Source of the DNA: Torpedo marmorata
Taxonomy: Eukaryota
Assembly: GCA_977017645.1 (NCBI GenBank)
Contig: OZ360224.1
Location: 118,730,001-118,794,000, forward strand
Direction of reading: 5' to 3'
Length of the DNA: 64,000 nucleotides
The first letter of the stretch is position 1; every line of letters begins with the position of its first letter. This document shows positions 9,291 through 34,488 of the stretch, piece after piece. The notes under the pieces were generated by a model. That model saw only the letters and a program-made list of their open reading frames with translations, did no database searches and was not told the origin of the DNA. Made by a program: the position numbers and the translations under genes.

Positions 9291-9329
9291 CTGTGGGAAA
9301 AAAGTCAGAAATCAAATGAGGGGCAGCAC

Positions 9330-12203
9330 TAGTTAGACAGAGTGAGCCTCCCTCTACACCGTCCCATCACACAGTCCCAGGGTCAGACCTCCCTCCAAAC
9401 GGTGCCTCACACCCCTCGCGTCAGACACAGAGTGAGCCTCCCTCTACACCGTCCCATCACACAGTCCCGGGGTCAGACACAGAGTGAAGCCTCCCTCTAC
9501 ACCGTCCCATCACACAGTCCCAGGGTCAGACCTCCCTCCAAACGGTGCCTCACACCCCTCGCGTCAGACACAGAGTGAGCCTCCCTCTACACCGTCCCAT
9601 CACACAGTCCCGGGGTCAGACACAGAGTGAAGCCTCCCTCTACACCGTCCCATCACACAGTCCCAGGGTCAGACACAGAGAGAAGCTCCCTCCACAACAT
9701 CCAATCACAAACTCCCGGGGTCAGACACAGAGTGAAGCTCCCACTCCCCGTTCCATCACACACGTTCAGGGTCAGACACAGAATGAAGCTCTCTCCACAC
9801 CGTCCCGTCACATACTCCCGGGGTCAGACACAGAGTGAGGCTCCCTCCACACTGTCCCATCACACACTCCCGGGGTCAGAGAGTGAAGCTCCCTCCGCAC
9901 CGTCCCATCATACACTCCCGGGGTCAGACAGAGTGAAGCTCCCACTCCCCGTTCCATCACACAGGTCCAGGGTCAGTCACAGAGTGAAGCTCCCTCCACA
10001 CTGTCCCGTTACACATCCCGGGTTCAGACGCAGAGTGAACCTCCCTCCACACCGTCCCATCACACACTCCCGGGGTCAAACAGAGTGAAGCTCCCTCTAT
10101 CTGTCCCATCACAATCCTGGGGTCAGACACAGAGTGAAGCTCCCTCCACACTATCCCATCACACGCTCCCAGGGTCAGACACAGAGTGAAGCTCCCTCCA
10201 CACTGTTCCATCACACACTCCCGGGGTCAGACACAGAGTGAAGCTCCCTCCACACTGTTCCATCACTCAATCCTGGGGTCAGACACAAAGTGAAGCTCCC
10301 TCCATATCGTTCCACCACACAATCCCGAGGTCAGACACAAAGTGAAGCTCCCTCTATCCATCCCATCACACAATCCCGAGGTCAGACACAGAGTGAAGCT
10401 CCCTCTGCACCGTCCCATCACACACTCCCGGGGTCAGACACAGAGTGAAGCTCTTTCCGCACACTCCCATCACACAGTCCCAGGGACAGATCTAGCAGTG
10501 CGCCTCCCTCCAAACAGCGCCCTCACACTCCTCGCGTCAGACACAGAGTGAAGCTCCCTCCACACCGTTCCATCACACTCCCAGGGTCAGACACAGAGTG
10601 AAGCTCCCTCCACACCGTCCCATCACACACTCCCAGGGTCAGACACAGAGAGAAGCTCCCTCCACAACATCCCATCACAAACTCCCAGGGTCAGACACAG
10701 AGTGAAGCTCCCACTCCCCGTTCCATCACACACGTTCAGGGTCAGACACAGAGTGAAGCTCTCTCCACACCGTCCCGTCACATACTCCCGGGGTCAGACA
10801 CAAAGTGAGGCTCCCTCCACACTGTCCCATCACACACTCCCGGGAAGCTCCCTCCGCACCGTCCCATCATATACTCCCTGGGTCAGACAGAGTGAAGCTC
10901 CCACTCCCCGTTCCATCACACACGTCCAGGGTCAGTCACAGAGTGAAGCTCCCTCCACACCGTCCCGTTACACATCCCGGGTTCAGATGCAGAGTGAACC
11001 TCCCTCCACACCGTCCCATCACACACTCCCAGGGTCAGACACAGAGTGAAGCTCCCTCCACACCGTTCCATCACTCAATCCTGGGGTCAGACACAAAGTG
11101 AAGCTCCCTCCATATCGTTCCACCACACAATCCCGAGGTCAGACACAAAGTGAAGCTCCCTCTATCCATCCCATCACACAATCCCGAGGTCAGACACAGA
11201 GTGAAGCTCCCTCTGCACCGTCCCATCACACACTCCCGGGGTCAGACACAGAGTGAAGCTCTTTCCGCACACTCCCATCACACAGTCCCAGGGACAGATA
11301 TAGCAGTGCGCCTCCCTCCAAACAGCGCCCTCACACTCCTCGCGTCAGACACAGAGTGAAGCTCCCTCCACACCGTCCCATAACACAATCCCGAGGTCAG
11401 ACACAGAGTGAATCTCCCTCCACTCTGTCCCATCACACAATCCCGAGGTCAGACACAGAGTGAAGCTCCCTCCACACCGTCCCATCACACACTCCCGGGG
11501 TCAGACACAGAGTGAAGCTCACTCCACACCGTCCCATCACACACTCCAGGGGTCAGACGCAAAGTGAAGCTCCCTCTATCCATCCCATCACACACTCCAG
11601 GGGTCAGACACAGAGTGAAGCTCCCTCCACACCGTCCCATAACACAATCCCGAGGTCAGACACAGAGTGAATCTCCCTCCACACCGTCCCATCACACACT
11701 CCTGGGGTCAGACGCAAAGTGAAGCTCCCTCTATCCATCCCATCACACACTCCAGGGGTCAGACACAGAGTGAAGCTCCCTCCACACCGTCCCATAACAC
11801 AATCCCGAGGTCAGACACAGAGTGAATCTCCCTCCACACCGTCCCATAACACAATCCCGAGGTCAGACACAGAGTGAAGCTCCCTCCACACCGTTCCATC
11901 ACACAATCCCGAGGTCAGACACAGAGTGAAGCTCCCTCCACACCATCCCATCACACACTCCCGGGGTCAGACACAGAGTGAAGCTCACTCCACACCGTCC
12001 CATCACACACTCCCGGGGTCAGACACAGAGTGAAGCTCCCTCCACACCGTTCCATCACACAATCCCGGGGTCAGACGTGAGTGAAGCTCCCTCCGCACCG
12101 TTCCATCACACAATCCCGGGGTCAGACACAAAGTGAAGCTCCCTCTATCCATCCCAACACATAATCCCGAGGTCAGACGTGAGTGAAGCTCCCTCTACAC
12201 CGT
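9330..12203. repeat. 52-bp minisatellite array (CAGAGTGAAGCTCCCTCCACACCGTCCCATCACACACTCCCGGGGTCAGACA)
   Basis: Tandem copies with variants and higher-order blocks; continues at 14265-14395 beyond the Rex1 insertion. Confidence 0.95.
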
Positions 12204-14262: not shown

Positions 14263-15219
14263 ATACTTCCGTGGTCAGAGTGAAGCTCCCTCCACGCTGT
14301 CCCAACACACCCCCAGGGTCAAACACAGAGAGAGGCTCCCTCCACACACTCCCGGGGTCGAATGCAGAGTGAAACTCCCTCTTCACAATCTCCCAGAGCA
14401 GGGACAGCGAACTCCGTATGGTCCAAGATACTGACTTCATCAACTTGAGGTAAATGAGTGAAGCAAAATTGTAACCAAATGCAAGGTGAACTCCAGGGTT
14501 TGTTACACTGTCAGCTCAGATCATTTGTGAGAAAGAAACTTTTCATGTGGCCCCAATTTTGTAAATAACCGTGTAGATACTGTTGGAGTGGCAGCATGGT
14601 GAGTGGTGGGGGGGGGAGGTGGGGGGAGAGAGGGGACGTGGGTTTTGTTATGTTTATTAGAGAGGGAATGAGGTGCAGAGTTCAATCGTTACAGGCTGTG
14701 TTTTGGAGGAGCATCAATTCCAGGTGAGCAGGTAATCGACGAGCTGAGTGGGATCTCCCTTTGTAAATGTCTTCGTGCTCCTGGCAACCAAACTCCATCC
14801 ATGAACTGTCCGACGAGGGCAGTGTGGGCACAAAGAGGGGCAGGGGCACGGGAGTGGACCTGTAAAAGTGGGCCTGCCAGAGTGGGCTTCAGCGAGGAGG
14901 CTCCGACACCTTGGCTGCACAGCCAATGTTGATGATGACTGGGCCAAAGCTCGGCAACATTTCAGGTAGTGTGAGGACAAAACTCAGAGTGCAGATTAAG
15001 GTGGCCTTTCCACCTGCACCGTCTACCACACGTGGGAGTTCCTCTCGACAACGGCATCCGCAGGACCTGCCTTGCTTTGTCCCACTGAGAACAGCCAACA
15101 CGGGAACAGGCCCTTCGGCCCAACTCTGCATGCTGACCATGAGGCCAATATGATAAACTCCATTAGTCTGCACGGTCGACGTTCCTCCATTCGCTGCTTG
15201 TTTGGGATGAGTACGAACC

Positions 15220-18200
15220 AGTGCCTGCTGGGGACAGTGTGGGTGTTCAGGGTGAGTACGTTCCCAGTGCCTGTTGGGGAGGGTGTGGGTGTACAGAGGG
15301 AGTATGTTCCCGCTGCCTGTTGGGGAGGGTGTGGGTGTACAGAGGGAGTATGTTCCCGCTGCCTGTTGGGGAGGGTGTGGGTGTACAGAGGGAGTATGTT
15401 CCCGCTGCCTGTTGGGGATGGTGTGGGTGTACAGAGGGAGTATGTTCCCGCTGCCTGTTGGGGAGGGTGTGGGTGTACAGAGGGAGTATGTTCCCGCTGC
15501 CTGTTGGGGAGGGTGTGGGTGTACAGAGGGAGTACGTTCCCAGTGCCTGTTGGGATCGGTGTGGGTGTTCAGGGGGAGTTATGTTCCCAGTGCCTGTTGG
15601 GGAGGGTGTGAGTGTTCAGGGGGAGTATGTTCCCAGTGCCTGTTGGGGAGGGTGTGGGTGTTCAGGGGGAGTACGTTCCCAGTGCCTGTTGGGGAGGGTG
15701 TGGGTGTACAGGGTGAGTACGTTCCCGCTGCCTGTTGGGGACGGTGTGGGTGTTCAGGGGAAGTACGTTCCAAGTGCCTGTTGGGGAGGGTGTGGGTGTA
15801 CAGGGGGAGTACGTTCCCAGTGCCTGTTGGGGAGGGTGTGGGTGTACAGGGTGAGTACGTTCCCGCTGCCTGTTGGGGACGGTGTGGGTGTTCAGGGGAA
15901 GTACGTTCCAAGTGCCTGTTGGGGAGGGTGTGGGTGTACAGGGGGAGTACGTTCCCAGTGTCTGTTGGTGAGGGTGTGGGTGTTCAGGGTGAGTACGTTC
16001 CCAGTGCCTGTAGGGGAGGGTGTGGGTGTTCAGGGTGAGTACGTTCCCAGTGCCTGTTGGGGAGGGTGTAGGTGTACAGGGGGAGTACGTTCCAAGTGCC
16101 TGTTGGGGAGGGTGTGGGTGTACTGGGGAAGTACGTTCCAAGTGCCTGTTGGGGAGGGTGTGGGTGTACAGGGGGAGTACGTTCCCAGTGCCTGTTGGTG
16201 AGGGTGTGGGTGTTCAGGGTGAGTACGTTCCCAGTGCCTGTAGGGATGGGTGTGGGTGTTCAGGGGGAGTACGTTCCCGCTGCCTGTTGGGGAGGGTGTG
16301 GGTGTTCAGGGAGAGTACGTTCCCACTTCCTGTTGGGGAGGGTGTGGGTGTACAGGGGGAGTACGTTCCCACTGCCTGGTGGGGAGGGTGTGGGTGTACA
16401 GGGGGAGTACGTTCCCAGTGCCTGTTGGGGAGGGTGTAGGTGTACAGGGGGAGTACGTTCCCAGTGCCTGTTGGGATCGGTGTGGGTGTACAGGGGGTGT
16501 ATGTTCCCAGTGCCTGTTGGGGAGGGTGTGGGTGTACAGGGGGAGTTATGTTCACGCTGCCTGTTGGGGAGGGTGTGGGTGTACAGGGGGAGTACGTTCC
16601 CAGTGCCTGTTGGGATCGGTGTGGGTGTACAGGGGGAGTACGTTCCCAGTGTCTGTTGGGGAGGGTGTGGGTGTACAGGGGGAGTTATGTTCACGCTGCC
16701 TGTTGGGGAGGGTGTGGGTGTACAGGGGGAGTACGTTCCCAGTGTCTGTTGGGGAGGGTGTGGGTGTACAGAGGGAGTACGTTCCCAGTGTCTGTTGGGG
16801 AGGGTGTGGGTGTACAGGGGGAGTACGTTCCCAGTGTCTGTTGGGGAGGGTGTGGGTGTACAGAGGGAGTACGTTCCCAGTGTCTGTTGGGGAGGGTGTG
16901 GGTGTACAGGGGGAGTACGTTCCCAGTGTCTGTTGGGGAGGGTGTGGGTGTACAGGGGGAGTACGTTCCCGCTACCTGTTGGGGACGGTGTGGGTGTTCA
17001 GGGGGAGTACATTCCCAGTGCCTGTTGGGGTGGGTGTGGGTGTACAGGGGGAGTACGTTCCCAGTGCCTGTTGGGGAGGGTGTGGGTGTACAGGGGGAGT
17101 ACGCTCCCAGTGCCTGTTGGGGAGGGTGTAGGTGTTCAGGGTGAGTACGTTCCCAGTGCCTGTTGGGGAGGGTGTGGGTGTCCAGGGTGAGTACGTTCCC
17201 GCTGCCTGTTGGGGAGGGTGTGGGTGTACAGGGGGAGTTATGTTCCCGCTGCCTGTTGGGGAGGGTGTGGGTGTACAGGGGGAGTTATGTTCCCGCTGCC
17301 TGTTGGGGAGGGTGTGGGTGTCCAGGGTGAGTACGTTCCCGCTGCCTGTTGGGGAGGGTGTGGGTGTACATGGGGAGTACGTTCCCAGTGCCTGTTGGGG
17401 ACGGTGTGGATGTTCAGGGGGAGTACGTTCCCGCTGCCTGTTGGGGAGGGTGTGGGTGTACAGGGTGAGTACGTTCCCAGTGCCTGTTGGGGAGGGTGCA
17501 GGTGTTCAGGGGGAGTACGTACCCAGTGCCTGTTGGGGACGTTGTGGGTGTTCAGGGGGAGTACGTTCCCAGTGCCTGCTGGGGAGGGTGTGGGTGTACA
17601 GGGGCGTACGTTCCCAGTGCCTGTTGGGGAGGGTGTGGGTGTACAGGGGGAGTATGTTCCCGTTGCCTGTTGGAGAGAGTGTGGGTGTTCAGGGTGAGTA
17701 CTTTCCCAGTGTCTGTTGGGGAGGGTGTGGATGTTCAGGGGGAGTACGTTCGCAGTGCCTGTTGGGGTGGGTGTGGGTGTACATGGGGAGTACGTTCCCA
17801 GTGCCTGTTGGGGACGGTGTGGGTGTACATGGGGAGTACGTTCCCAGTTCCTGATGGGGAGGGTGTGGGTGTACAGGGCGAGTACGTTCCTGCTGCCTGT
17901 TGGGGAGGGTGTGGGTGTACAGGGGGAGTACGCTCCCAGTGCCTGTTGGGGAGGGTGTGGGTGTACAGGGGGAGTACGTTCCCTGTGCCTGTTGGGGTGG
18001 GTGTGGGTGTACAGGGGGAGTACGTTCCCAGTGCCTGTTGGGGAGGGTGTGGGTGTACTGGGCAAGTACATTCCCAGTTCCTGATGGGGAGGGTGTGGGT
18101 GTACAGGGCGAGTACGTTCCTGCTGCCTGTTGGGGAGGGTGTGTGTGTACAGGGGGAGTACGCTCCCAGTGCCTGTTGGGGAGGGTGTGGGTGTACAGGG

Positions 18201-18520
18201 GGAGTACGTTCCCTGTGCCTGTTGGGGTGGGTGTGGATGTTCAGGGTGAGTACGTTCGCAGTGCCTGTTGGGGACGGTGTGGGTGTACAGGGCGAGTACG
18301 TTCGCAGGGCCTGTTGGGGAGGGTGTGGGAGTACAGGGTGAGTACGTTCGCAGGGCCTGTTGGGGAGGGTGTGGGAGTACAGGGCGAGTACGTTCGCAGG
18401 GCCTGTTGGGGAGGGTGTGGGAGTACAGGGTGAGTACGTTCGCAGGGCCTGTTGGGGAGGGTGTGGGAGTACAGGGCGAGTACGTTCGCAGGGCCTGTTG
18501 GGGAGGGTGTGGGTGTTCTG
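15220..18520. repeat. 46-bp G-rich minisatellite (GGGAGTACGTTCCCAGTGCCTGTTGGGGAGGGTGTGGGTGTACAGG), ~70 copies
   Basis: 46-bp periodicity (AGTATG at 15301 and 15347); accounts for all repetitive ORFs in this interval. Confidence 0.96.
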
Positions 18521-20271: not shown

Positions 20272-21228
20272 TTCGCTGGGACAGATGCCGGTGACCGAGT
20301 AAGAGGCTGCAGGTTTCCGGGATCGAAAGAGGAGAAAAGTGAGCTCTAGTCAGACCCCATAAGACCGACCTCCCAAAGAAACTCTCGGGAATACTGTGGT
20401 CCCTCATCCGAGGTAGATCTGATTCCCTGCCGAAATCCAGGAAGAGAGAATACCGGTGAGTAAAAAAGAAAATATATATTCGGGTAGTGAAAAAGGGAAA
20501 ACTTGTGGCGCCGGGGAAGTTGCAGGCAAGAGGCTTGCTAGTGAAAAATCGCAAGCAGTAAGACTTGTTGCTCAGTAAATTAGGATAGGGTCCATCTCCG
20601 ACACCTTGCCCTAGACTGGTTGTTAAGAGAGGAAATCCTCCACGCGAAGGTCGGGAACCTGAAGTAGGTGCAAAGGAGACGGATTGAGGGGCTAATGGGA
20701 AATAGCCTGGATAAAAGTGACGGGGGAGCACCTGTACAGATAATGTGTTATTTGGAACCTCAATATAATAAAGACTATCGAACCTTAAGTTATCGGTTAA
20801 CCATGAGATTAGGAAACGAGGCCTGGCCCGTTGGAGGAACATGGAATGTTGAGACAATAAAGAAAGCAGAGATGTTAATATGGGAAAAAGACGCAGGGAA
20901 AAAGTGGAAAAAGCGGATTAAGGAATGGAGAGAAGAAGCTCACAGGAAAGCAGAGGATGCAAGGAGTAGGAGTTGGATGAATAATGAATGTAAAAAGGGT
21001 ATAGAGATACATGATAAGGAAGGAAAACTCAAAGAATGGAAGGTTCTGGAGGCAGAATGTAAGTGGATAGAGGAGAAGGAAAAACGTGAGAAAGAAAGTA
21101 ATGGTACCAGTAAAGAAAATCCTCGGAAACAGCTAGTTAACAAAAAACGCGAGGAAAAACCACAGGCAAGTTCAGTCTCCGGAGACCCCATGTTTGGCAT
21201 AATGACCCTAACAATCAGTGATAATGAG

Positions 21229-24200
21229 TATTATGGTGACTTCGATCCAACAATAGTCACCTGGAGGCTAAGTGAGATACTTGTCTTTGACGCGTTTTAA
21301 TTAATTTACTAACAAAGTCCAATATGTTCAAAAACTTTATTTACATACGTGACTTGCAGTAATCTTCAATGACTTTAATATAAACAGTTCTTGAAATGAT
21401 GTATGATGAGTTCCTTTAAATGATTCCTTAAACTGTACTTAGTTGTTCAAACAATTCCAAACCACAAAGTAATCGGTTCAATGTTCAATGAAATGATGTA
21501 TAAGACGTTTAGAAACTATCTTTGAAACGCTGTATTAAACGATGTCTGAAACACTCGATGAAACGATATAAAAAGTTATAAAACGGTCAATAAAGATATG
21601 GAGATCACACTCACCCTCCTAATCTCCATCTTTTTCCTATTCTCTCTCCTTCGCGCATGCTCCGTTGCTCCTATACCACTGCGCACGCTCCACCGCGCAC
21701 ACTACATCTCCCACTATACACCGCGCACAATGACGTCACTCCAGACTGCGCATGCGCCCGTCGGCACTCCAGCGCATGCGCAGAGCACAGAACAGGCCGA
21801 GGACGGCCTACAGACAGCGCGAGCGCTCCACAACCCGACGAGGCATCGGAGCGCCGCAGCAAAGGTAAGTTAATGAGCCTACGGCACTTACACCGGCCCA
21901 TAATTATTATAATTAGACGCAATGTCTTAAATAATAATTACACTATAAATTATAAATAACAATAACCATAACATTCAAACAATACAAATCTTCTTTCTTC
22001 CTTCTTCATAAACCCAGAGTTTACCATAACTCTGAATCAACAAAAGTCTGTAACCTGTGAAGTATACAACAACAAATAAAGTCAGTTTATATTTATCAAA
22101 GTTCCTCTGTCTCCAACAAAAGACAGACCTTGTTAATAGGTCTGTTTAGAAAACCAGTCTTAGCTTTAATTCGCACTTGACGCACAAGTCCCCTTTTGTC
22201 TTGAAAAGTCTCAATAATTTTTACAAGTAACCAGGAGTTTCTTGAAGTTGAATTATCCATAATATCAATGTCTCTTTAAAGCTCTTTTATCTCCATAATC
22301 TGAGTTAAAACGTCAACCAGTAAACCTCAAATCTTCCTCAGACAAAATAGATACAGTTTTTCTTTTGAATTTAACACAAGGCACTTCTTCAGCATGTCGT
22401 TTCACTTTATTCCTTTCTTCAGTATTCCACTTCTCATGTGAAGAATTTAAACTCTTAGAATTAGAATTTGAATATTTATCTGATCCTTTCGATTTTAAAC
22501 AGGTCTGTTTAACCACTTTGGTTTCTATTGCTCTTTCCTGCAATTCTAAATCCAATTTTGCAACTTTCAATTCAGTCTCAGTTCTTTCCGAGAAATTAAT
22601 AATTTGATCTGAAGTCAAAATATCATGTGATACATTGATATTTCCATTGTCAATCCTGTTGCGACAAACTTGAAATTTTTTAATTTCTTCATCTTATTTG
22701 TTACATTTCTGCAATGCAATATCACATTCTTTCTGCATTGTTAATTGTTGAACATTCAACTTACATTCTTGATTGGTTTTTAAAGTCAACTGTTTTGTGT
22801 TATTAACCAATAACTTATTCTCTTTTAAAACATTAATCTCTTCCTCCAACCTTTTACATTTTGATAATGCTGAATCTCTTTCCTCAATAACTGTATTCAT
22901 TTCTTCAGCAGTTATTCTTTTCTTCCGCTTTCTGACTTTGCGAGTTTTACTTACAATTAAATCTTTCTGTTTACTGTTTTCTTGATTATCTAATATTTCC
23001 AATTCCCCTTTCAACATTTTGTTCTCTGAATTCAATTGCATTAAATTATCATTCACATTATTCTTTATTCCATCAGCACAATTTTCTGTGTTTTCCAGTT
23101 TTACATCACATTGCAATATTTCTTCATTAGCTTTGTCTATTGTATTCTCTGAACTACAAAAGCTACATTCAGATTTGTTTTCAGTCACTTGTTTTATTCC
23201 TGTATCTGATTCAATTACACATGAACAATCAATAGTATTATTTGCAACATCTTCTAATACTTCACTTTCATCCATTTCTGACGAAATTAATTCCTTCAAT
23301 GTTGTTTTAAATACCATTGATTTATTTTCACATTGATCTGTTTTCTTTTCTTCAAAAGTGATTTTCTTATTCACAGTTTTTTGCTCTTCGCTTAACTCTT
23401 CAACTTTCACAACCGAAATTCTATTAATATTTATCGCTAACTGTTCCTGAGCAATATCATTATTTCTTTCCAGTGGTCCATTGATTGTCCAACCAAACTT
23501 GGTTCTAATAGCGTAAGGTCCATTCCTTTTACTCTGTATTACTTCTTTTGGTTCCAAAACCTTTGGCACATCTGAACCAATCAGCATTTCTATCTCAGAA
23601 TTAATTTCAGGTAAATAAACCTTCCACAGATAAGCTAAATGATGGATATCCTTTTGATGAGTAATATTTCCTTCATTCACTGGCATAGTCTTCCGAGTAT
23701 ATAAACTTGGAAGATCACAAAATTTTTTGTCATCCAATCCAGCAACCTCTAAGCCTGAAACAATGTTAGTTTCAACAACCTTTTCTTGTCCCATGGTTTT
23801 TAACATAATTCTTGATCTTTTTCCTTGAATATTAAGTTTATTCATTAGTCCTTCCGTGCAAAAAGATGCAGTGCTGCCTGGGTCTAGAAATGCATATGTT
23901 TTTACTATTGCATCCCCTTTCTTGGTCTTGACTTGTACAGGCACTATCGAAAGTTTGCAGTTATCCACACCGGCCCCGGTAAGACCACTTGTCTGAACCG
24001 AGGTTATAACATTATTTTCTGTTGTTTCCTTTGTTTCTGTTTGCTCCTTTTCCAATTCCTTGTTTCTGTTATGGATATGCAAAATTCTAGGATGTTTCAA
24101 ATTGCATATGTTACAATTAATTCGCTTCTCGCAGTTTTTACTGATGTGCCCTTTACACAGACAGCTAAAACATATTCCATTTTCCTTTAAGAAAGCGATC

Positions 24201-27200
24201 TTCTCATTATGTTCCTTCTTTTCCAATCGTAAACACATTTCCAAAGTATGTCCACCTTTACAGAACAAACAACTCTTTTCATTAGGCAAACTTTCCTTTT
24301 CCTTATTTACTTTGTCCTTTTCTTTACTTATAACTTGCACATTAGTAGCAAAAGTACTCCTTTTTAATTTCGGACTAGACTGTGTGTTAGACTTCTTTAC
24401 ATCTTTGCCCATTGAATTATCTCTGGTAATTCCATATAGTGGATCTGTTTCAACTTACACCTGTCGTTCAAGAAAATTTACCAAATCCTTTAAGGTAATT
24501 TTTCGACCGTAATTTACTTGTAAATCACAAGCCAAATTTCTCTATCTATCCCATAACTTGTAAGGTAATTTTTCTAAGATGATTCGCATATTACTATGCA
24601 CTTCAAGCTCACGAATATTATCGATTTCTTCCATAGCATTACAACATCCTCTTAAAAACAGAGTATATTCTTGCAGAGCCTTTACATCATTTTGTTTTAT
24701 TGATGTCCATTTAAGAGCTTTATCCATATAAGCTAAAGCAATTCGATGCTTGTTGCCAAAATATTGTTCCAATAAAGCCTTAGCTTTGTCTAATCCTCTT
24801 TCTGAAGACATTTGTTTACAACTCTTTACCAGTTCTTTTGGATGTCCCTTTGTGAACATTTCCAAATAATAAAGACATTCATCACGATCTTGGCATTTAT
24901 CTTCAATATTGCGTTTGAAAGATCTCATAAATGATTGATACTGAAGTGGATCACCATCAAAAGTTTGTATCTCTTTCTTGGGTAAAGAAGAGAGATTGTA
25001 ACTGAAACAATGATGCAGCAATTTCATTTTGTCTTTCCTTGGATGACAATACATTGCTCTGTTCACTGTTTCTTGTTGCATGCAATGTATCTGGAAACCT
25101 CACTGGTGTAGTTTCTTCCATATTTCTGATGCTTGACTCAAATAACAAAGAAGCTGCTTCGTTCGACCGAACCCAAGCCGCAGCTTTGTTTTCAGATGTT
25201 ACCATTGGTACATGTGACTCGATACCAATATGCTCTTGAAAGGTTTGTCCTTGTATATGCAAGTTTTGTATCCTTGGTTCTAAAATATCTATCCTTTTGG
25301 TTGGTTTCTTTTCGTGTGACTCCTTTTTTAAATATGACCTTTTATTATCAGACAATTTAGATAATTTACTTCCAGCACCAGATACCATTGAGCCTTTTAT
25401 TGCTTTCTTTTCTGCCTTGACAATAGCAATGTTTGCTTCTAGCTCCTGCTGTTCTTTTCTCTGCCTTAGCTGCTCCTTCTCTTGTCTTAGATGCTCCATT
25501 AGCTGCTCCTCCTTTTGTCTTAGCTGCTCCTCCTCTTGTTCTAAAATATATTTATCCTTAAGCGTTTTTTGTTGTGCAAGAAGAGCGGCCAATTTAACAT
25601 CAATCTTTGTACGTGACGATGCAGAACTTGAAGTACGAGAAACTCTGGAGCTCGAACCAGAACTTCTTTTGCTTCTCCTGCTTTCAGCATTTGAGACACT
25701 GTCATTTGCTTGTATTTCATCCTGCAGTTCATATGTTGTCTTCATACTTACCTCTTTATCCAATTCGAATTGTATATCCTTTGCATCTTCAACCTCTTCA
25801 ATTTCTTCATCATTTGGTGACACAATTTCAGCCATTTCCAAGTTATCCTCTTGTTCATCTAATGAAGCTGCCTCTTCATCCTTTGCCTGCTTCAATCTTT
25901 CGATAAGAACCTTTTTATTTCCACTTATGTCCTTTTTCAGTCGCTTCAATTCTTCTTTAATATCCGCAACCTTCATGTCTTCAATACGTTGGTCCTCAAC
26001 AACAACATCAGCGGTTGCTGCATCAGCTGCTGATATATCAGTAGCTGCTGTATCAGAGGCTGCTGCGGCCATTTTACTCGTCTTGTTCCTCTGTCCTTCA
26101 AGCATACACAACACTAGCCAAACAACAGTCCCCAATGGACCAGCGGCAGCAATTCCAATCTGTGTTCTTACTTGCTAAAGATACACAGAAGGAGTCCACA
26201 GACTTATGCCTACCACTTCAAATGACTGTAATGTGCTGCTATCCATAAACGAGTTTCAACCACAACATCCGTCAATAATATCACTGATTTTCCAAAAATG
26301 GTTTCTCCAACGTATTTATAGGACACTTTACTATAAGATTTGAAGCTCTAAATCCCTCTCTGGCTGTTACTCATGGCAGATGGATGTGGATTACAAACTG
26401 CCCCCAACTCGAGGCATCTTCAAGATGGCCGCCATTTTATTTTAAATATCAGTCCAAAGCACAGAGAGATTATTCTATCTTCTTTCCTTCAATTTTCTGT
26501 TCCAAACATCCAGCCACTTTATTGACTATATTATGGTGACTTCGATCCAACAATAGTCACCTGGAGGCTAAGTGAGATACTTGTCTTTGACGCGTTTTAA
26601 TTAATTTACTAACAAAGTCCAATATGTTCAAAAACTTTATTTACACACGTGACTTGCAGTAATCTTCAATGACTTTAATATAAACAGTTCTTGAAATGAT
26701 GTATGATGAGTTCCTTTAAATGATTCCTTAAACTGTACTTAGTTGTTCAAACAATTCCAAACCACAAAGTAATCAGTTCAATGTTCAATGAAATGATGTA
26801 TAAGACGTTTAGAAACTATCTTTGAAACGCTGTATTAAACGATGTCTGAAACACTCGATGAAACGATATAAAAAGTTATAAAACGGTCAATAAAGATATG
26901 GAGATCTCACTCACCCTCCTAATCTCCATCTTTTTCCTATTCTCTCTCCTTCGCGCATGCTCCGTCGCTCCTATACCACTGCGCACGCTCCACCGCGCAC
27001 ACTACATCTCCCACTATACACCGCGCACACTACATCTCCCACTATACACCGCGCACAATGACGTCACTCCAGACTGCGCATGCGCCCGTCGGCACTCCAG
27101 CGCATGCGCAGAGCACAGAACAGGCCGAGGACGGCCTACAGACTGCGCGAGCGCTCCACAACCCGACGAGGCATCGGAGCGCCGCAGCAAAGGTAAGTTA

Positions 27201-27220
27201 ATGAGCCTACGGCTCTTACA
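21229..27220 (-). mobile_element. BEL/Pao LTR retrotransposon, non-autonomous (lacks RT, RNase H and IN core), inserted in ERV gag
   Basis: Two LTRs (26529-27220 and 21229-21892); 5-bp TSD ATGAG (21224-21228 and 27221-27225); PPT-like ATGGGCCGG before the 3'LTR. Gag FDGDPLQY region, three Cys/His knuckles, AFLDPGS protease, IN C-terminal RNSW..GLVRQVRIK..RPINKVCLL. Confidence 0.93.
22098..26072 (-). pseudogene. BEL polyprotein: SAP domain - coiled coil - Gag - Zn knuckles - protease - MIPOL1-like coiled coil - integrase C-terminal remnant (few lesions)
   Basis: Concatenation of ORFs 24957-26135 (ATG 26072), 24542-25081, 22694-24412, 22313-22618 and an unlisted frame ~22098-22275. The TAA at 22694 is read through in frame. 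Confidence 0.85.
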
Positions 27221-28445
27221 ATGAGGAAGAGGAGGACGATGGACTCTGGGGAAGACCCCCTCCATATGCACCAGTCCAGGCTAACGTAGGACTCCTACCA
27301 GGAGCACAGGGACTATCATTACATCCTAATATCAGCAATGATGGAGAAGGAGATCTATCACCCTTCCCTAGCATGACTCCTGCCGAAGAGGTAAATACAT
27401 CCCCGACCATGACACCAGCCTGACAGACTGCAGATGTTCCCACTTAGAACTGTGCCCAACCCTCAGGCAGGCCAAGGGAACCAACCTCTTACAGTAGAAA
27501 TATATTCCCCATGGAAACCCCAGGAATTATGTTTAATTAGGGATAAAGCCCCAAATAAGACTGTGTTGCCTGACGCATTCGTCGATTATTTGCGATCTAC
27601 AGTGGAATATTACAGTGCCAATGATCGAGATTTGTGGGGTCTGACAATGTCACTATTGACGGTAGCAGAAAAGACTAAATGGAAAAATGCTATGAACCTT
27701 CAAACTTGGGAGGCAGTCAAAAACGTCCTGGCACTCAGAGAGGATGTTGGAATTCCCCTCTGTATAAACTTTATGATGGAACATTTAACTAATTGTTTAA
27801 AACAGCCCATCAATATGTCTAAAGTGATTGATTGTAAGCCAGCTCCACGGAAAGATCCACAGACCTATTTTGACCGATTTGTCGAAACGTATAAAACCCA
27901 TGCCGGAGATAGTGCTTTTAACCGGGGGGGAAAATTCGGCACCGTTCAATTCGATTCTTATGACTTGTCTACCCTACAAGCAACAAACAATGATAAAAAC
28001 TAATCTGAATTGGGCTGAAAATGACTTGAATCAGATGAGACGCGCTGTGGTTACATTTTGACCAGAAGCAACCGGAAAGGGACCTGGAGGAGCAGGAGGA
28101 ATGGGGATGGGAATTAAAAATGAATATGTGTTGAGAGAAGATGATTTAGCACCTAAGGGACACGTTTATGCCCTACGCCCACAATATCCCGGAGGAAAGG
28201 AGAGAGGAGGTCCTGGTCGCCCTTTTGGAAACACCGGCCAAAGGGAGTGGGACTGGAATAAGAATAGGAATAATCGATGTTTCCGATGTGGGAGAGAGGG
28301 ACATTGGATGAGGGATTTTTCCGGCAAGGGGACCAGGACCAGAAGCACGAAGAACCCCTCACTCTGACCATAATCCCTTTCGCCAGTGACTCACCTCAGA
28401 GTCCCAATGGCGTCTCTTTCCCTTGCTGTCTAGCCCACTGTAGTA

Positions 28446-31400
28446 ATGAAGTTGGAGGGATTCCGGATTCCATTTATGATTGACACAGGGGCAACAATGT
28501 CAACCCTGCGAAATGAGGTTGTGGAACACCTACGAATCCCTCTTTCGGGAGAGAAGTCTCGACTTTCTGGAATTGATGGCAAGACTAAGGTAAACACCTT
28601 AACCTATCCGCTGACAGTGGAATTTGAAAGGAACAAGTACACCTTGACCTTTTCCGTTACTACAGGTCTTGATTGCAATATAGCTGGGAGAGACATGCTG
28701 ATGGGGCTGGGAATTAACATTGAGTGTTCGGACCAGGGGATATCTATATACCACCCACGAGCACTGGTTATGAAATTTCCACCACCACAATGGTGCGCGG
28801 TTCATTTAACGCCTGCCCCTGAACTAAAGGGATTGCCCAACCCCCCGGTTGCAACGAAGAAATGACCGAATATTTTGAATCCCTCCTTACTAAGCCGGAG
28901 ATCCAGGAACAGCATTAGTCTCCAGACTGCCGGACGGATTGTGGATGTTAGATTCGGACCTAACCAGCCCTCATGTTACGACCTCTGTAAATGCTGGACA
29001 TACACCAAAAGAATTAGGCCATTTGGTCTACACCTTGGAAAGCAACACCTTTCGGCTGGAACACTTCGGTTTTGGAAGACACCATGCCTCCTAAATGGGG
29101 AGGTACGACATCATCGAGCGGGGAGACCAGAAGACCACGACAACAAGGGACACTTGTGGTCGGTATCACCTTATGAGGTGGGACTAACTACTTGCGACCC
29201 GATCAACATTAAGTCACAAGAAGGTGTCACGCTCCCGTCAGTCCTGCAGTATCCATTGAAAGAGGAAGCAAAGGAAGGAGTAAGAGCACTGATTTATTCG
29301 TTGATACATCAAGGAATTCTGAAGGAATGCCAGTCGCCATGTAACACTCCTATATTACCGGTGCCTAAAACAGGACGAACTGAGTGGCGCCTGGTCCAAG
29401 ATCTACGAGCCATAAACAAAGTGGTAAAACCTATGCATGCTATTGTTCCCAATCCTGCAACCATCCTCAGCCAGATTCCTGCGGCAGCTATGATTTTCAC
29501 TGTAGCCGACTTACAGCATGCTTTCTTTGCGATTCCCTTACATCCTGACTGTCAATACCTCTTTGCTTTTACCTATGATAAACGACAATACACCTGGAAA
29601 CGGCTGCCACAGGGCTTTGTGCACTCGCCTACCATTTTTTCACAGGTTCTAGCGAAACAATTAAGTACATTGACCCTGCCCCGTGAATCCACGATTGTAC
29701 AGAATGTAGATGACCTTCTACTTGCGAGCAAGACCACCGACGACAATATAGCCGATACTGCTGTCTTGCTTCAAGCATTACACCAATGGGGCTATGTAAT
29801 CCCTAAGAGGAAAGTAACCCAGGCACAGCGGGAAGTTAAGTTTCTGGGAATACGGTTGAGTGCCAAGGAACAGACTCTCACTGAAGATTGTCTACGTCTG
29901 ATACGGCAACACCCAGCACCTACCACCCCGAAACAGATGCGTGCCTTCCTAGGATTGATCAATTTCTGCCGGCAGTGGATTCCAGACGTGGCAGTATATA
30001 CCAAGCACCTGTCACCCTACTCCTCAGCAAACGCTCCACAGACTTTTGTACTCACTCAGGAAGAATTGAAGATGTTTAAAGAATTGAAAAGGGCTCTTTC
30101 CTCAGCACCGGCTATAGGGAGACCCTTGTATGACCGGCCGTTCCAACTTTATGTCACAATAATCCAAGACTGTGCATCTGAAGTTCTCACCCAGAAACAT
30201 GGGGATGTCCGAAGGTCGGTGGCTTACTACTCAGTCCGGTTGCACGTGGCTACCCACCCTGTACTCAAATTCTACCCGGAATCTATGCAGCTGTTACTGC
30301 AGCATCTAACATTACTCTCCATCATCCTGTGACTGTGAATACAACTCATTGTGTTACAGCTCTGATGAATTCTGACTTGACCAAATACATGACTATGGCT
30401 CGGTTCGGAAGGTGTGAAGTAAGCCTTTTATACAATCCTAATTTGACCTTTCAACACTGTTCTACGATTAACCCCTCTTCCTTCCTCCAATGCCCGCCGG
30501 AAGGACTTGCGGATCCACCGCATGATTGCATCCAAGCAAACTCCACTTTAACTAGGGTAAGGGAAGATCTATTAGACACCCTCCTGCCTGAGCCATGCAC
30601 TACATGGTTTGTTGACGGCTCTTACATGGTGTTGCAGGACACAGGGAGAAGAGCTTCTGGATATGCCATAGTTTGCCAGGACGGAACACTGGTTGAAGAT
30701 GGAAGATTTGAGAGTTCTCTTTCAGCCCAGCAAACGGAACTCTATGCTTTGACCCGTGCCTGTATTCTAGGTAAAGACAAGGATGTCAATCTTTATACTG
30801 ATTCCCGTTATGCTTTCGGAGTTGCCCATGTCTTTGGGGCACTATGGCAACACCAAGCGTTTCTGACGTCTGCAGGGACCCCAATCAAAAATGCCTCCTA
30901 TGTTATGAATTTGCTTAAGGCCCTCCGATTGCCTAGACTGCTGGCTGTAATTAAGTGCAATGCCCACACTAGGGGAAACGATGCTGTATCCCAAGGGAAT
31001 GCGACAGTGGACAGAGCGGCTAAGAAAGCTGCAAGCCAGTCCCCGCATTTAGTTCCAACTGAGGGGCAGATTCTGATCAATAGAACGGTTATGCCGAACA
31101 TGGAAATAGTGTTAAGTAAACAGAGGGACGCCTCTGCCAATGAAATTGATCTATGGAAACAAGAGGGTTGCGCCCAAGACTCTCAGATGGGTCTGTGGCT
31201 TACCCCCCTTGGACAAGTATGTATACCCGATTCCCTGCTACCCATTATTTTGAATTATTTACATACCCTCACGCATGCTGGAAAGGAGGGAATGATAAGA
31301 ATGGTTGGGGAAACATGGTGGCATCCTAAGGTACGGCAAGAGGTACTGCGAGTGGCCTCAGAATGTAAAATTTGCAAAAGAATAAATCCCAGAAAAGCAG

Positions 31401-32040: not shown

Positions 32041-32523
32041 TCATAAATATTACAATGAATAAGACTATAAAATTTGTTAGTTTTAATGTTAATGGATTAA
32101 ATGGACCCATAAAAAGGAAAAGAGTTTCGGCACACCTTAAAAAAATGCAGGCGGATATAGTTTTTTTGCAGGAGACTCACCTCACGAATAAAGAACATAA
32201 CAAATTAAAGAGGGAATGGGTGGGACAGGTGTTTGCGTCCTCTTTCAATTCCAAGGCTAGGGGGGGTGGCTATTTTAATAAATAAAAATGTTCCGGTGGC
32301 AGTGAAAGATACGATTATTGACTCGGCTGGGAGATTTGTGATGATACACTGTCAAATTTACTCCGAACCCTGGACACTTCTGAACCTTTATGCACCAAAT
32401 TTTGATGACGAGGCTTTTATGCAAAATATATTTCTGAAGGTAGCAGGGGGGAGACAGAATGTGTTATGGAAGGGGATTTTAACTTTTGCCTGGATCCCGT
32501 TCTGGATAAGTCTGCAAAGACGG

Positions 32524-34488
32524 TGTAAGAGCCATAGGTTTAGTTACTTACCTTTATCGCGGCGTTCCGATGGTCTCGGCGGGGTTCGGAGGATTCGCGG
32601 TGTTTGGTAGGCCATGCTAGGCCTATTTAGTACTCTGCGCATGCGCGGGAGTGCCGACGGGCACATGTGCAGTGGGGAAATGGTTGGAGCATGCGCAGTT
32701 GGGAAGTGACGGCAGTATGCGCGGTGGAGCATGCACGAATCGGGGAAGAATTATAAAAAGATGGCGGCTTAGAGGAGGGTGAGTGAGATCACCATATCTT
32801 TCATTGACCGTTTTATTGAACGTTTAAAGACATTTAAATGACGTTTAAAGGAATCATTTAAAGGAATCATTTAAAGGAATTTATTAAGCATCGTTATCAA
32901 GAATTGTTTATATTTCGTTTAAAGAAGATATTTAAGTCATTGAAGATTGTTACAAGTCACGTGTGTAAATAAAGTTTTTTGAACCTATTGGACTTGTTAG
33001 TAAATTAATTGAAACGCGTCAAGAACAAGTATCTCATTTTCGAGGGGGACGATCCCCCCTCGTGGGTCCAAATTGGACTACACACCATAGGAGAGAAAAT
33101 AGCGAAGGATTTTATCTACAAATGGAACACCAAATTAATATCTAGGCGAACGGACAATCCCATTCTCAAACATATGATTAAGATTTGGCAGGAAATCATT
33201 GAATGTACTGGAGGAAAGGTGGAAATATCACCAAAGGCACCTTTGATCCAAAACGAAACTATACCATGGCTTTGGATAACAAACTTTTAAACATTTGACA
33301 CCAGAATGGACTCCGATATATTGAAGACTGTTACGAGAAAGGACAACTTATGTCTTTTGAGCAATTGAAGAGTAAATATGATTTGTCTAATGGAACCTTC
33401 TACTGTTTTCTTCAACTAAAGTCCTTCTTGAGGGATAGATGGGGTCCTACAATGACCCCACCCAGGTGTAATGAAATGGAACAGTTGCTTCGATTGGGAA
33501 ATGCACCTAAATTCATATCGAGAATGTATTTCGTACTCCAAAGCGAAAGCCCTAAGTCGGGCCTACAAAGATTGAGAGAGAGGTGGGAGTCGGACTTGGG
33601 AACAACAATTCACGAACGATGCTGGTCAGACTGGTGTTTAGATAGCATGACAGCAGTTATTAATGCCAAATATAGGCTGGTTCAATATAATTTCCTACAC
33701 CAATTGTATCTCACACCACAAAAACTACGCAAGTCAAAACCAGAGATATCAGAAATGTGCTTCAGGTGTGGGATAGAAATTGGATCCTTTTTACACTCCA
33801 CCTGGTCATGTGCACAGGTAAGGCCCTTTTGGCATGATTTAGCTAATGTACTAATTAGGATTACGGGAGTAGCCTTCCCACTAGACCCGGAGTTGTATCT
33901 TTTAGGAAACCTCATGGACATAAGCAACAGATTATCTAAATTCAAAATTCAATTTGTAAAAGTTGCTCTGTCCGTAGCAAAAAAATGCATCGCAGTTACT
34001 TGGAAGTCCGACTCCCCCCTTCTCATCACTCGATGGTCTACGGAAATGTACAGCTGTATCCCCATGGAAAAAATTACATATAGTCTTAGAAATAAGTACG
34101 ATAACTTTGTTAAAGTGTGGCAAACGTACTTGGAGCACATTGGTGCTCAGTTGTAATCAAACCCCTGAGGTATGGTATACTGTAATGTATAATTATTTTA
34201 AGGGTGTGGCATCCCCAAATACTTGAACAAAAGTTGTAAGCGCTGACGGTACGTTTAGTTTTTTTTTCTTTTTCTTTCTCTTTTGTCTCGGTTTTATTCT
34301 TTTTGGGTGGGGGAGGGAGGGTTAAGGGGCATAATGTATCCTGTACTTGATACGTTTGAAATTTATGTATATTCGTGATTGTTAATTAATGTTTTGTGAA
34401 AATTTTGAAATTGAAAAATAAAATATTTTAAAGAACAAGAATCTCACCTAGCCTCCAAGTGACTATTTGTTGGATTGAAGTCACTATA
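32524..34488 (+). mobile_element. BEL-family solo LTR, related to the 21229-27220 LTRs, itself interrupted by an L1 fragment
   Basis: Starts TGTAAGAGCCATAGG and ends GAAGTCACTATA; 5-bp TSD GACGG (32519-32523 and 34489-34493). Confidence 0.88.
33037..34430 (+). mobile_element. 5'-truncated L1 inserted in the BEL solo LTR
   Basis: ORF2 C-terminus 33350-34156; 3'UTR; 16-bp TSD AAGAACAAG(T/A)ATCTCA at 33021-33036 and 34431-34446. Confidence 0.9.

Follow-up and report, generated by a model that had tools for sequence, protein, structure and literature searches.

A non-autonomous BEL/Pao family in Torpedo marmorata with spliced pieces of three host genes in place of the pol core, one of them likely captured through a circular RNA

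The element, its helpers and its setting

The window analysed here, a 64,000-nucleotide stretch of Torpedo marmorata DNA, comes from contig C25 in a genome of 6.2 Gb and carries on its minus strand, at 27220-21229, a non-autonomous derivative of a BEL/Pao retroelement (Table 1). Direct LTRs and a 5-bp target-site duplication, a BEL/Pao trait, are present; self-alignment of the LTR pair gave 6 mismatches over 664 aligned bases, and the sequence after the 5′ LTR does not start with TGG at the position of the tRNA primer-binding site. Matches of the protease to DUF1758 and Asp_protease_2 were weak and below cut-off, and the gag frame of this copy is broken by a 2-base gap near 24990 and by stops at 24544 and 24457. 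No env ORF, nor room for one, lies between the integrase remnant of the window copy and its 3′ LTR.

Table 1. Features of the window element (window positions).
Feature	Position	Strand	Remarks
5-bp target-site duplication, upstream copy	27221..27225	-	
5′ LTR	26529..27220	-	self-alignment; starts TG, ends ATA rather than CA
Gag	23954..26072	-	SAP domain, DUF1759 (E 1.7e-6), three Cys/His knuckles
Aspartic protease and linker	23386..23953	-	D-P-G motif at 23884, as in helpers
BRCA1 piece	22965..23385	-	two spliced exons in the window; four in older copies
MIPOL1 exons F (3′ part), G and H, spliced	22659..22964	-	stop at 22696-22694 in the window copy
Back-splice junction (MIPOL1 exon H end to exon B start; B upstream of H in the host gene)	22658..22659	-	
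MIPOL1 exons B (5′ part) and C	22514..22658	-	carries an 81-base in-frame deletion
Elongin A-like remnant	22301..22514	-	frame stop at 22315-22313
Degenerate copy of the original pol terminus	22276..22300	-	15 of 19 bases identical to helper pol end
Integrase C-terminal remnant (second half of DUF5641)	22096..22275	-	E 4e-9; helper-derived, outside the long frame
3′ LTR	21229..21892	-	self-alignment; AATAAA at 21341
5-bp target-site duplication, downstream copy	21224..21228	-	

In BEL/Pao elements a single ORF carries RT, Pao RNase H (PF05380) and integrase with DUF5641, and of this set only half of DUF5641 is left in the window copy. A first, sequence-only reading had reported that no RT, RNase H or integrase core follows the protease, and this is borne out. 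Five of the 12 pol-bearing elements fetched (helpers) have open frames of more than 2000 aa, and the one helper that was domain-scanned has the full BEL domain set; since the pol domains missing here are present in a near-identical helper, the window element is a non-autonomous derivative. The window aligns to intact helpers at 26733-23381 and then from 22274 on, with ~1.1 kb of foreign sequence (the cargo) at the position where helpers have ~3.2 kb of pol. The long frame had been thought to run on into the integrase remnant; instead it stops within the Elongin A-like remnant (Table 1), and DUF5641 is out of frame in the window copy and behind a stop in siblings. The degenerate pol terminus is in frame with the cargo in several siblings.

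The element sits in the gag gene of an unrelated endogenous retrovirus on the plus strand (20668-21228 and 27221-30332), which has an MGNS start, a PPPY motif, a protease and RT (PF00078) and is itself broken. The window also contains a diverged LTR of the same superfamily at 32521-33039, 70-83% identical and in opposite orientation, and long minisatellite arrays with 46- and 52-base units at ~15100-18400, 9300-12200 and 58000-59900.

Spliced pieces of three host genes

A protein search with the post-protease region returned MIPOL1 of Narcine bancroftii as its top match (69% identical, E 1e-24). All 101 matches carry the same two Pfam domains, and all named ones are MIPOL1 except one JGI entry, which is otherwise named. 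The likeness to MIPOL1 suggested from the sequence alone is thus real, a generic coiled-coil match is ruled out, and the match spans exon junctions without introns. The insert had been read as MIPOL1-like host sequence, but this gene accounts for ~450 of the ~1100 bases, the rest being BRCA1 (23385-22965) and Elongin A-like (22514-22301). The MIPOL1 part, originally assigned to ~22660-22975, is circularly permuted and extends to 22514. Its internal stop had been placed a single change from Leu but does not derive from that residue; the host and the siblings have another residue in common there.

The two other donors were recognised in older copies of the element, which are longer and much closer to the host genes than the window copy. 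With their upstream part, all 8 matches of a protein search were BRCA1 (top match 70% over the full query, E 3e-70), and their downstream part is Elongin A by its domain (PF06881, E 6e-16) and by similarity to the human protein (E 5.7e-40). The nearest named homologues of the captured genes come from the electric ray Narcine bancroftii, which points to a batoid host. Host genes were located via parts outside the captured pieces and then fetched, which placed BRCA1 on contig C61, MIPOL1 on C40 (exons lettered A-I here) and the Elongin A-like gene on C41. A search for the BRCT family gave 9 matches, none of them on the contig where the protein search later placed BRCA1. Compared with the host, older copies contain four BRCA1 exons and five Elongin A-like exons, the latter including the BC-box region, at 90-100% identity, in order and intronless, with three BRCA1 and four Elongin junctions spliced; the window remnants are 71-89% identical to the host exons. 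An Elongin A paralogue on C25 was rejected as donor (68-77% identity versus 91-98% for the C41 gene). Capture from BRCA1, MIPOL1 and the Elongin A-like gene is therefore practically certain, and the proposal of a captured spliced host RNA stands, with two further genes besides MIPOL1.

At the fusion points, 6 bases are shared between MIPOL1 and Elongin and ~2 between BRCA1 and MIPOL1, so that microhomology is clear at the former only. The MIPOL1/Elongin junction (L046:2105-2135 and other older copies) has the 6-base motif followed by ~15 bases that are not simply host-like, with a net 8-base difference from the host; the extra bases are possibly a secondary event that restored the frame. Host BRCA1 (C61 near 25488550, L100) lacks 9 bases, or three codons, where its large exon begins, and the element and Narcine retain them, so that the capture likely predates this loss in the host. 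In Narcine BRCA1 isoform X2 (P0102 residues 1-185), a Gag-like start by eye replaces the RING domain, probably a mis-annotation.

Spread of the family and selection on its frame

A cargo 21-mer inside MIPOL1 exon F matches the genome exactly at 17,101 places (control, 0). It is kept in 30/30 close siblings, 5/5 copies in host introns and 19/29 older copies, and since it is missing from part of the older copies this count is a floor, probably fairly close. From 100 places listed for the 21-mer, 40 copies along C1 were sampled; all 40 have BRCA1 and MIPOL1, and 38 have Elongin. The cargo is thus a family feature present in many copies, and a post-insertion event unique to the window copy, also considered beforehand, is ruled out by cargo-bearing copies across the genome. 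An initial search for the Pao RNase H domain yielded 6,618 candidates, so that pol-bearing copies are probably fewer than those with cargo. The 39 young-type copies stayed together when clustered at 7.5%. Tandem arrays at ~5-kb spacing were seen (C1:1498298-1518174; pairs L007/L018, L008/L013 and L009/L019), and the array copies examined appear to share LTRs.

The family is likely common to several related species, judging from the coverage of the cargo in contigs from runs of organisms B, C and D (30/30 bins) and of the older form in a run of organism I (30/30 bins), where one contig bridges the back-splice junction and another the MIPOL1/Elongin junction. Runs X6-X9 covered little cargo, X9 with intron-like loose ends. 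In protein collections, a search for a Gag-cargo fusion returned one match, a bird protein with MIPOL1 domains, and among the best 150 matches none had its best stretch spanning the cargo; both are weak negatives, as repeats are rarely annotated.

Gag and most of the protease of the window element are 96-99% identical to helpers (best of 10, per 200-base window), whereas the same region of older cargo-bearing copies is 68-84% identical to the window. Identity to one helper is ~80% over the last 100 bases before the cargo. In one protease tree, made without a clade test, helpers nest among young chimeric copies. The near-identity to helpers and the nesting lead us to infer that recombination with helpers has renewed the backbone, the cargo being passed on by inheritance. 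The dominant form has a second, helper-type 3′ end appended behind the degenerate old pol stop.

Along the branch leading from capture to the young form, the cargo frame acquired no stop, compared with 10 and 7 in the other two frames. Under the observed A/T-biased substitution spectrum, 9.1 ± 2.6 stops were expected in the 294 codons (0 of 20,000 permutations), and when the analysis was repeated with single copies, stops were depleted in all 5 (0-2 versus ~10 expected). Across 23385-22301, 93 of the 135 substitutions from the host state are G>A, C>T or C>A, and GC content is now 29%. Seven deletions separate the window from older copies, all multiples of three (24, 120, 81, 195, 3 and 3 bases versus L050; 111 versus L032 and L049); in two of the three older copies, gaps are split into non-multiples of three by breaks of their own, and the gap near 22366 measures 110 versus L050. 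From the protease onwards, 18 of the 29 close siblings that have the anchor (one of 30 lacks it; three pairs are tandem neighbours) keep the cargo frame open to its end, and it is open today in 14/35 sampled copies, while the Gag-protease-cargo frame is unbroken in 1/9 of the full-length young copies fetched. A break at one A-run of the cargo, apparently the inherited loss of a single base, is common to 5 of 36 sampled copies, indicating that a broken frame may still spread.

The amino acids have fared otherwise. On the same branch, dN/dS is 1.01 for the cargo and 1.31 for its MIPOL1 part versus 0.34 for the protease, about a third of cargo residues have changed, the synonymous share is not above expectation (P 0.27), and the BC-box region and much of BRCA1 are deleted in the dominant subfamily. 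We are highly confident that selection acts on the open frame of the cargo, and with stops purged, deletions in frame and amino acids drifting, it is the frame that is selected and not the host functions. The likeness to transducing retroviruses drawn by the sequence-only reading is weakened by this near-neutral drift, which likewise leaves its released, functional MIPOL1 polypeptide unsupported, except for a weak hint in one stretch of 30 residues. Acutely transducing retroviruses carry gag-onc fusions, with host coding sequence in frame with Gag, and depend on helpers; the present family differs in having no env gene and in a cargo that is not conserved as protein.

The hint bears on a different explanation of the same captures, in which the cargo protein itself matters and its K/E-rich coiled-coil tail aids Gag-PR oligomerisation, co-assembly with helper Gag-Pol or nuclear entry. 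In 5/5 copies, which are related and not independent, conservation over 30-codon windows peaks at the same MIPOL1 coiled coil (KKRITAEE; 2-3 changes, P 0.015-0.05), and the KKRITAEE stretch is retained through every deletion seen. Among recent sublineages, moreover, the ratio for shared relative to singleton changes in the cargo is 0.51 (p 0.009, at least 3 copies; 0.57, p 0.07, at least 5 copies), similar to that of the Gag core (0.46). Set against the long-branch dN/dS, the changed third of residues and the loss of the BC-box region and much of BRCA1, these observations leave a role for the protein unlikely.

We return to selection for the frame as such. The frame ends at or just before the degenerate old pol stop, ~0.95 kb from the AATAAA in the 3′ LTR, and a stop right after the protease would double this distance. 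Long 3′ untranslated regions have a general link to nonsense-mediated-type decay, and the position of the frame end, together with the doubled 3′ distance that an earlier stop would leave, makes protection from decay the favoured reason for the open frame, which we put forward tentatively, at somewhat less than an even chance. In the literature searched, no published work on decay avoidance for such elements was found.

The back-spliced junction and the origin of the family

Within the cargo the order of the MIPOL1 exons is F (3′ part), G, H, followed by B, C and the beginning of D, and each of the four colinear junctions is exact and intronless. The H-to-B junction links the last base before the GT donor of exon H with the base that directly follows the proximal AG of a tandem (NAGNAG) acceptor at exon B; at least one related protein (P0111) apparently uses this acceptor. 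The junction occurs in 27/29 older copies, 30/30 close siblings and 37/40 sampled copies, and a 19-mer across it has 203 exact genome matches (control, 0). Exons B-H sum to 780 bases, a multiple of three, of which ~590 were copied, and the piece breaks off within exon D, where Elongin is joined, with no poly(A). The introns flanking the putative circle measure 50 and 62 kb and have 47 inverted matches in common, a count that, having no control comparison, is only permissive. Four cargo-bearing copies lie within introns of the host MIPOL1 gene itself (G000 C40:64320001-64650000).

At the level of sequence, the H-to-B junction has the features by which Dong et al. (PMC4897178) recognise circRNA-derived copies, and an exonic circ-Mipol1 has been reported in mouse (PMC9888537), whose exons the portion of that study available to us does not give. 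A reversed exon order could also have arisen without a circle, by a reverse-transcriptase jump on linear mRNA, by intragenic trans-splicing or from a tandem B-H duplication since lost. Non-colinear junctions can indeed have other origins (PMC4897178), and the H|I and A|B junctions have 3 bases in common around the splice point. Both ends of the H-to-B junction nevertheless fall on exact splice sites, for which the odds under random jumping are roughly estimated at ~2e-4 (~10 junctions in 2 kb, both ends within 1 base); neither exon A nor exon I, outside the circle, was found in any of the 40 sampled copies; exon I has a single match in the genome, and the host carries one copy of each MIPOL1 exon. 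An origin without a circle thus appears improbable, and derivation of the MIPOL1 piece from a circular RNA very probable. The earlier proposal of a spliced MIPOL1 RNA captured by a non-autonomous BEL/Pao family, in frame with Gag-PR, holds in these respects, with the amendment that its source was likely back-spliced rather than a linear mRNA.

Taken together, the data point to the following history, which we consider likely as a whole: a non-autonomous BEL/Pao element whose pol core was replaced in frame by spliced pieces of three genes, MIPOL1 likely by way of a circular RNA, and which likely spreads by enzymes borrowed from intact helpers. Host RNAs would have been co-packaged in a particle and joined by template switches of reverse transcriptase, the MIPOL1 template presumably being the exon B-H circle. 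The Gag-PR backbone and 3′ end would since have been refreshed from current helpers by recombination. The cargo would be filler, translated so that ribosomes travel to roughly the native pol stop, and such translation may shield the genomic RNA against decay of the nonsense-mediated type and thereby promote its packaging with its own Gag. The mild constraint in recent sublineages and the one conserved MIPOL1 coiled-coil stretch count against pure filler, and the shared A-run break against a strict frame rule. A bolder version is doubtful, namely that a host circRNA was reverse-transcribed and fused between BRCA1 and Elongin A, that the translated hybrid is required, with the MIPOL1 coiled coil as a particle-assembly module, and that the family is the most amplified circRNA-derived sequence known and outnumbers its helpers. 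That the cargo is an unselected passenger whose open frame is a founder accident would agree with the drifting amino acids and with a frameshifted sub-branch that seems to have spread, but is already strongly disfavoured and very hard to credit given the missing stops, the stops gained in the other frames and the frame-keeping deletions.

Related systems are known. In the accessible text of Tan et al. 2016 (PMC5131818), LTR-mediated retrocopies are partial spliced RNAs that replace part of an internal ORF, may have several parents (two genes in Pao BATUMI, four at a mouse locus) and can undergo further rounds as non-autonomous elements. The window family likewise has intronless partial host sequence in place of part of the internal ORF and has been retroposed again as a non-autonomous element. 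Any one genome has few of those retrocopies, and nowhere in that text is the word 'circular' used; the present chimera, unlike them, is a major, long-lived family on changing helper backbones. Maize Bs1, as far as the accessible parts of two sources describe it (PMC13317346, PMC5131818), is an LTR element with three host-gene segments in one chimeric reading frame. It is a plant element, whereas the window family is a vertebrate BEL/Pao family of at least 17,100 copies, in which the cargo forms a fusion with Gag-PR, one piece is back-spliced, and the frame is kept while the amino acids are not. In mouse, 33 pseudogenes derived from circRFWD2 and called with high confidence have the back-splice junction fixed in DNA and adjoin LTR-element sequence, MMERVK10C-int; their mechanism was left open and no fusion frame was reported (Dong et al. 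2016, PMC4897178). The window family has ~500 times more copies, and its back-spliced piece, unlike circRFWD2, lies inside an element with LTRs and target-site duplication, in frame between two captured genes. A 2026 preprint (10.64898/2026.06.26.734816) places MIPOL1 first among retrocopied genes in cartilaginous fishes; its accessible part treats retrocopies as tracking non-LTR elements and notes no LTR carrier or back-splice, and a family of the kind described here likely explains the position of MIPOL1 in that list. Other top genes there (SUDS3, SDF2L1, SLU7 and ZNF276) might also be LTR cargo. No description of the window family was found in the literature searched, with subscription journals, Repbase and Dfam outside the search.

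LTR capture and circRNA-derived pseudogenes are thus already known, and what is new is an in-frame cargo of three genes, one of them apparently back-spliced, amplified to at least 17,100 copies. With a back-splice junction inside an LTR element, between other captures attributable to template switching, the family would give the clearest anatomy found for the entry of circular RNA into DNA, the route left open by Dong et al. (PMC4897178). It also allows, in a retroelement, selection for a frame to be told apart from selection for a protein sequence, and its natural copies, in the thousands, offer material for asking why the frame is kept. If 17,100 copies of ~6 kb are assumed to be near full length, the family amounts to ~100 Mb by arithmetic, and the BRCA1-derived sequence that it carries could lead to cross-reaction with host silencing and to confusion in gene annotation.
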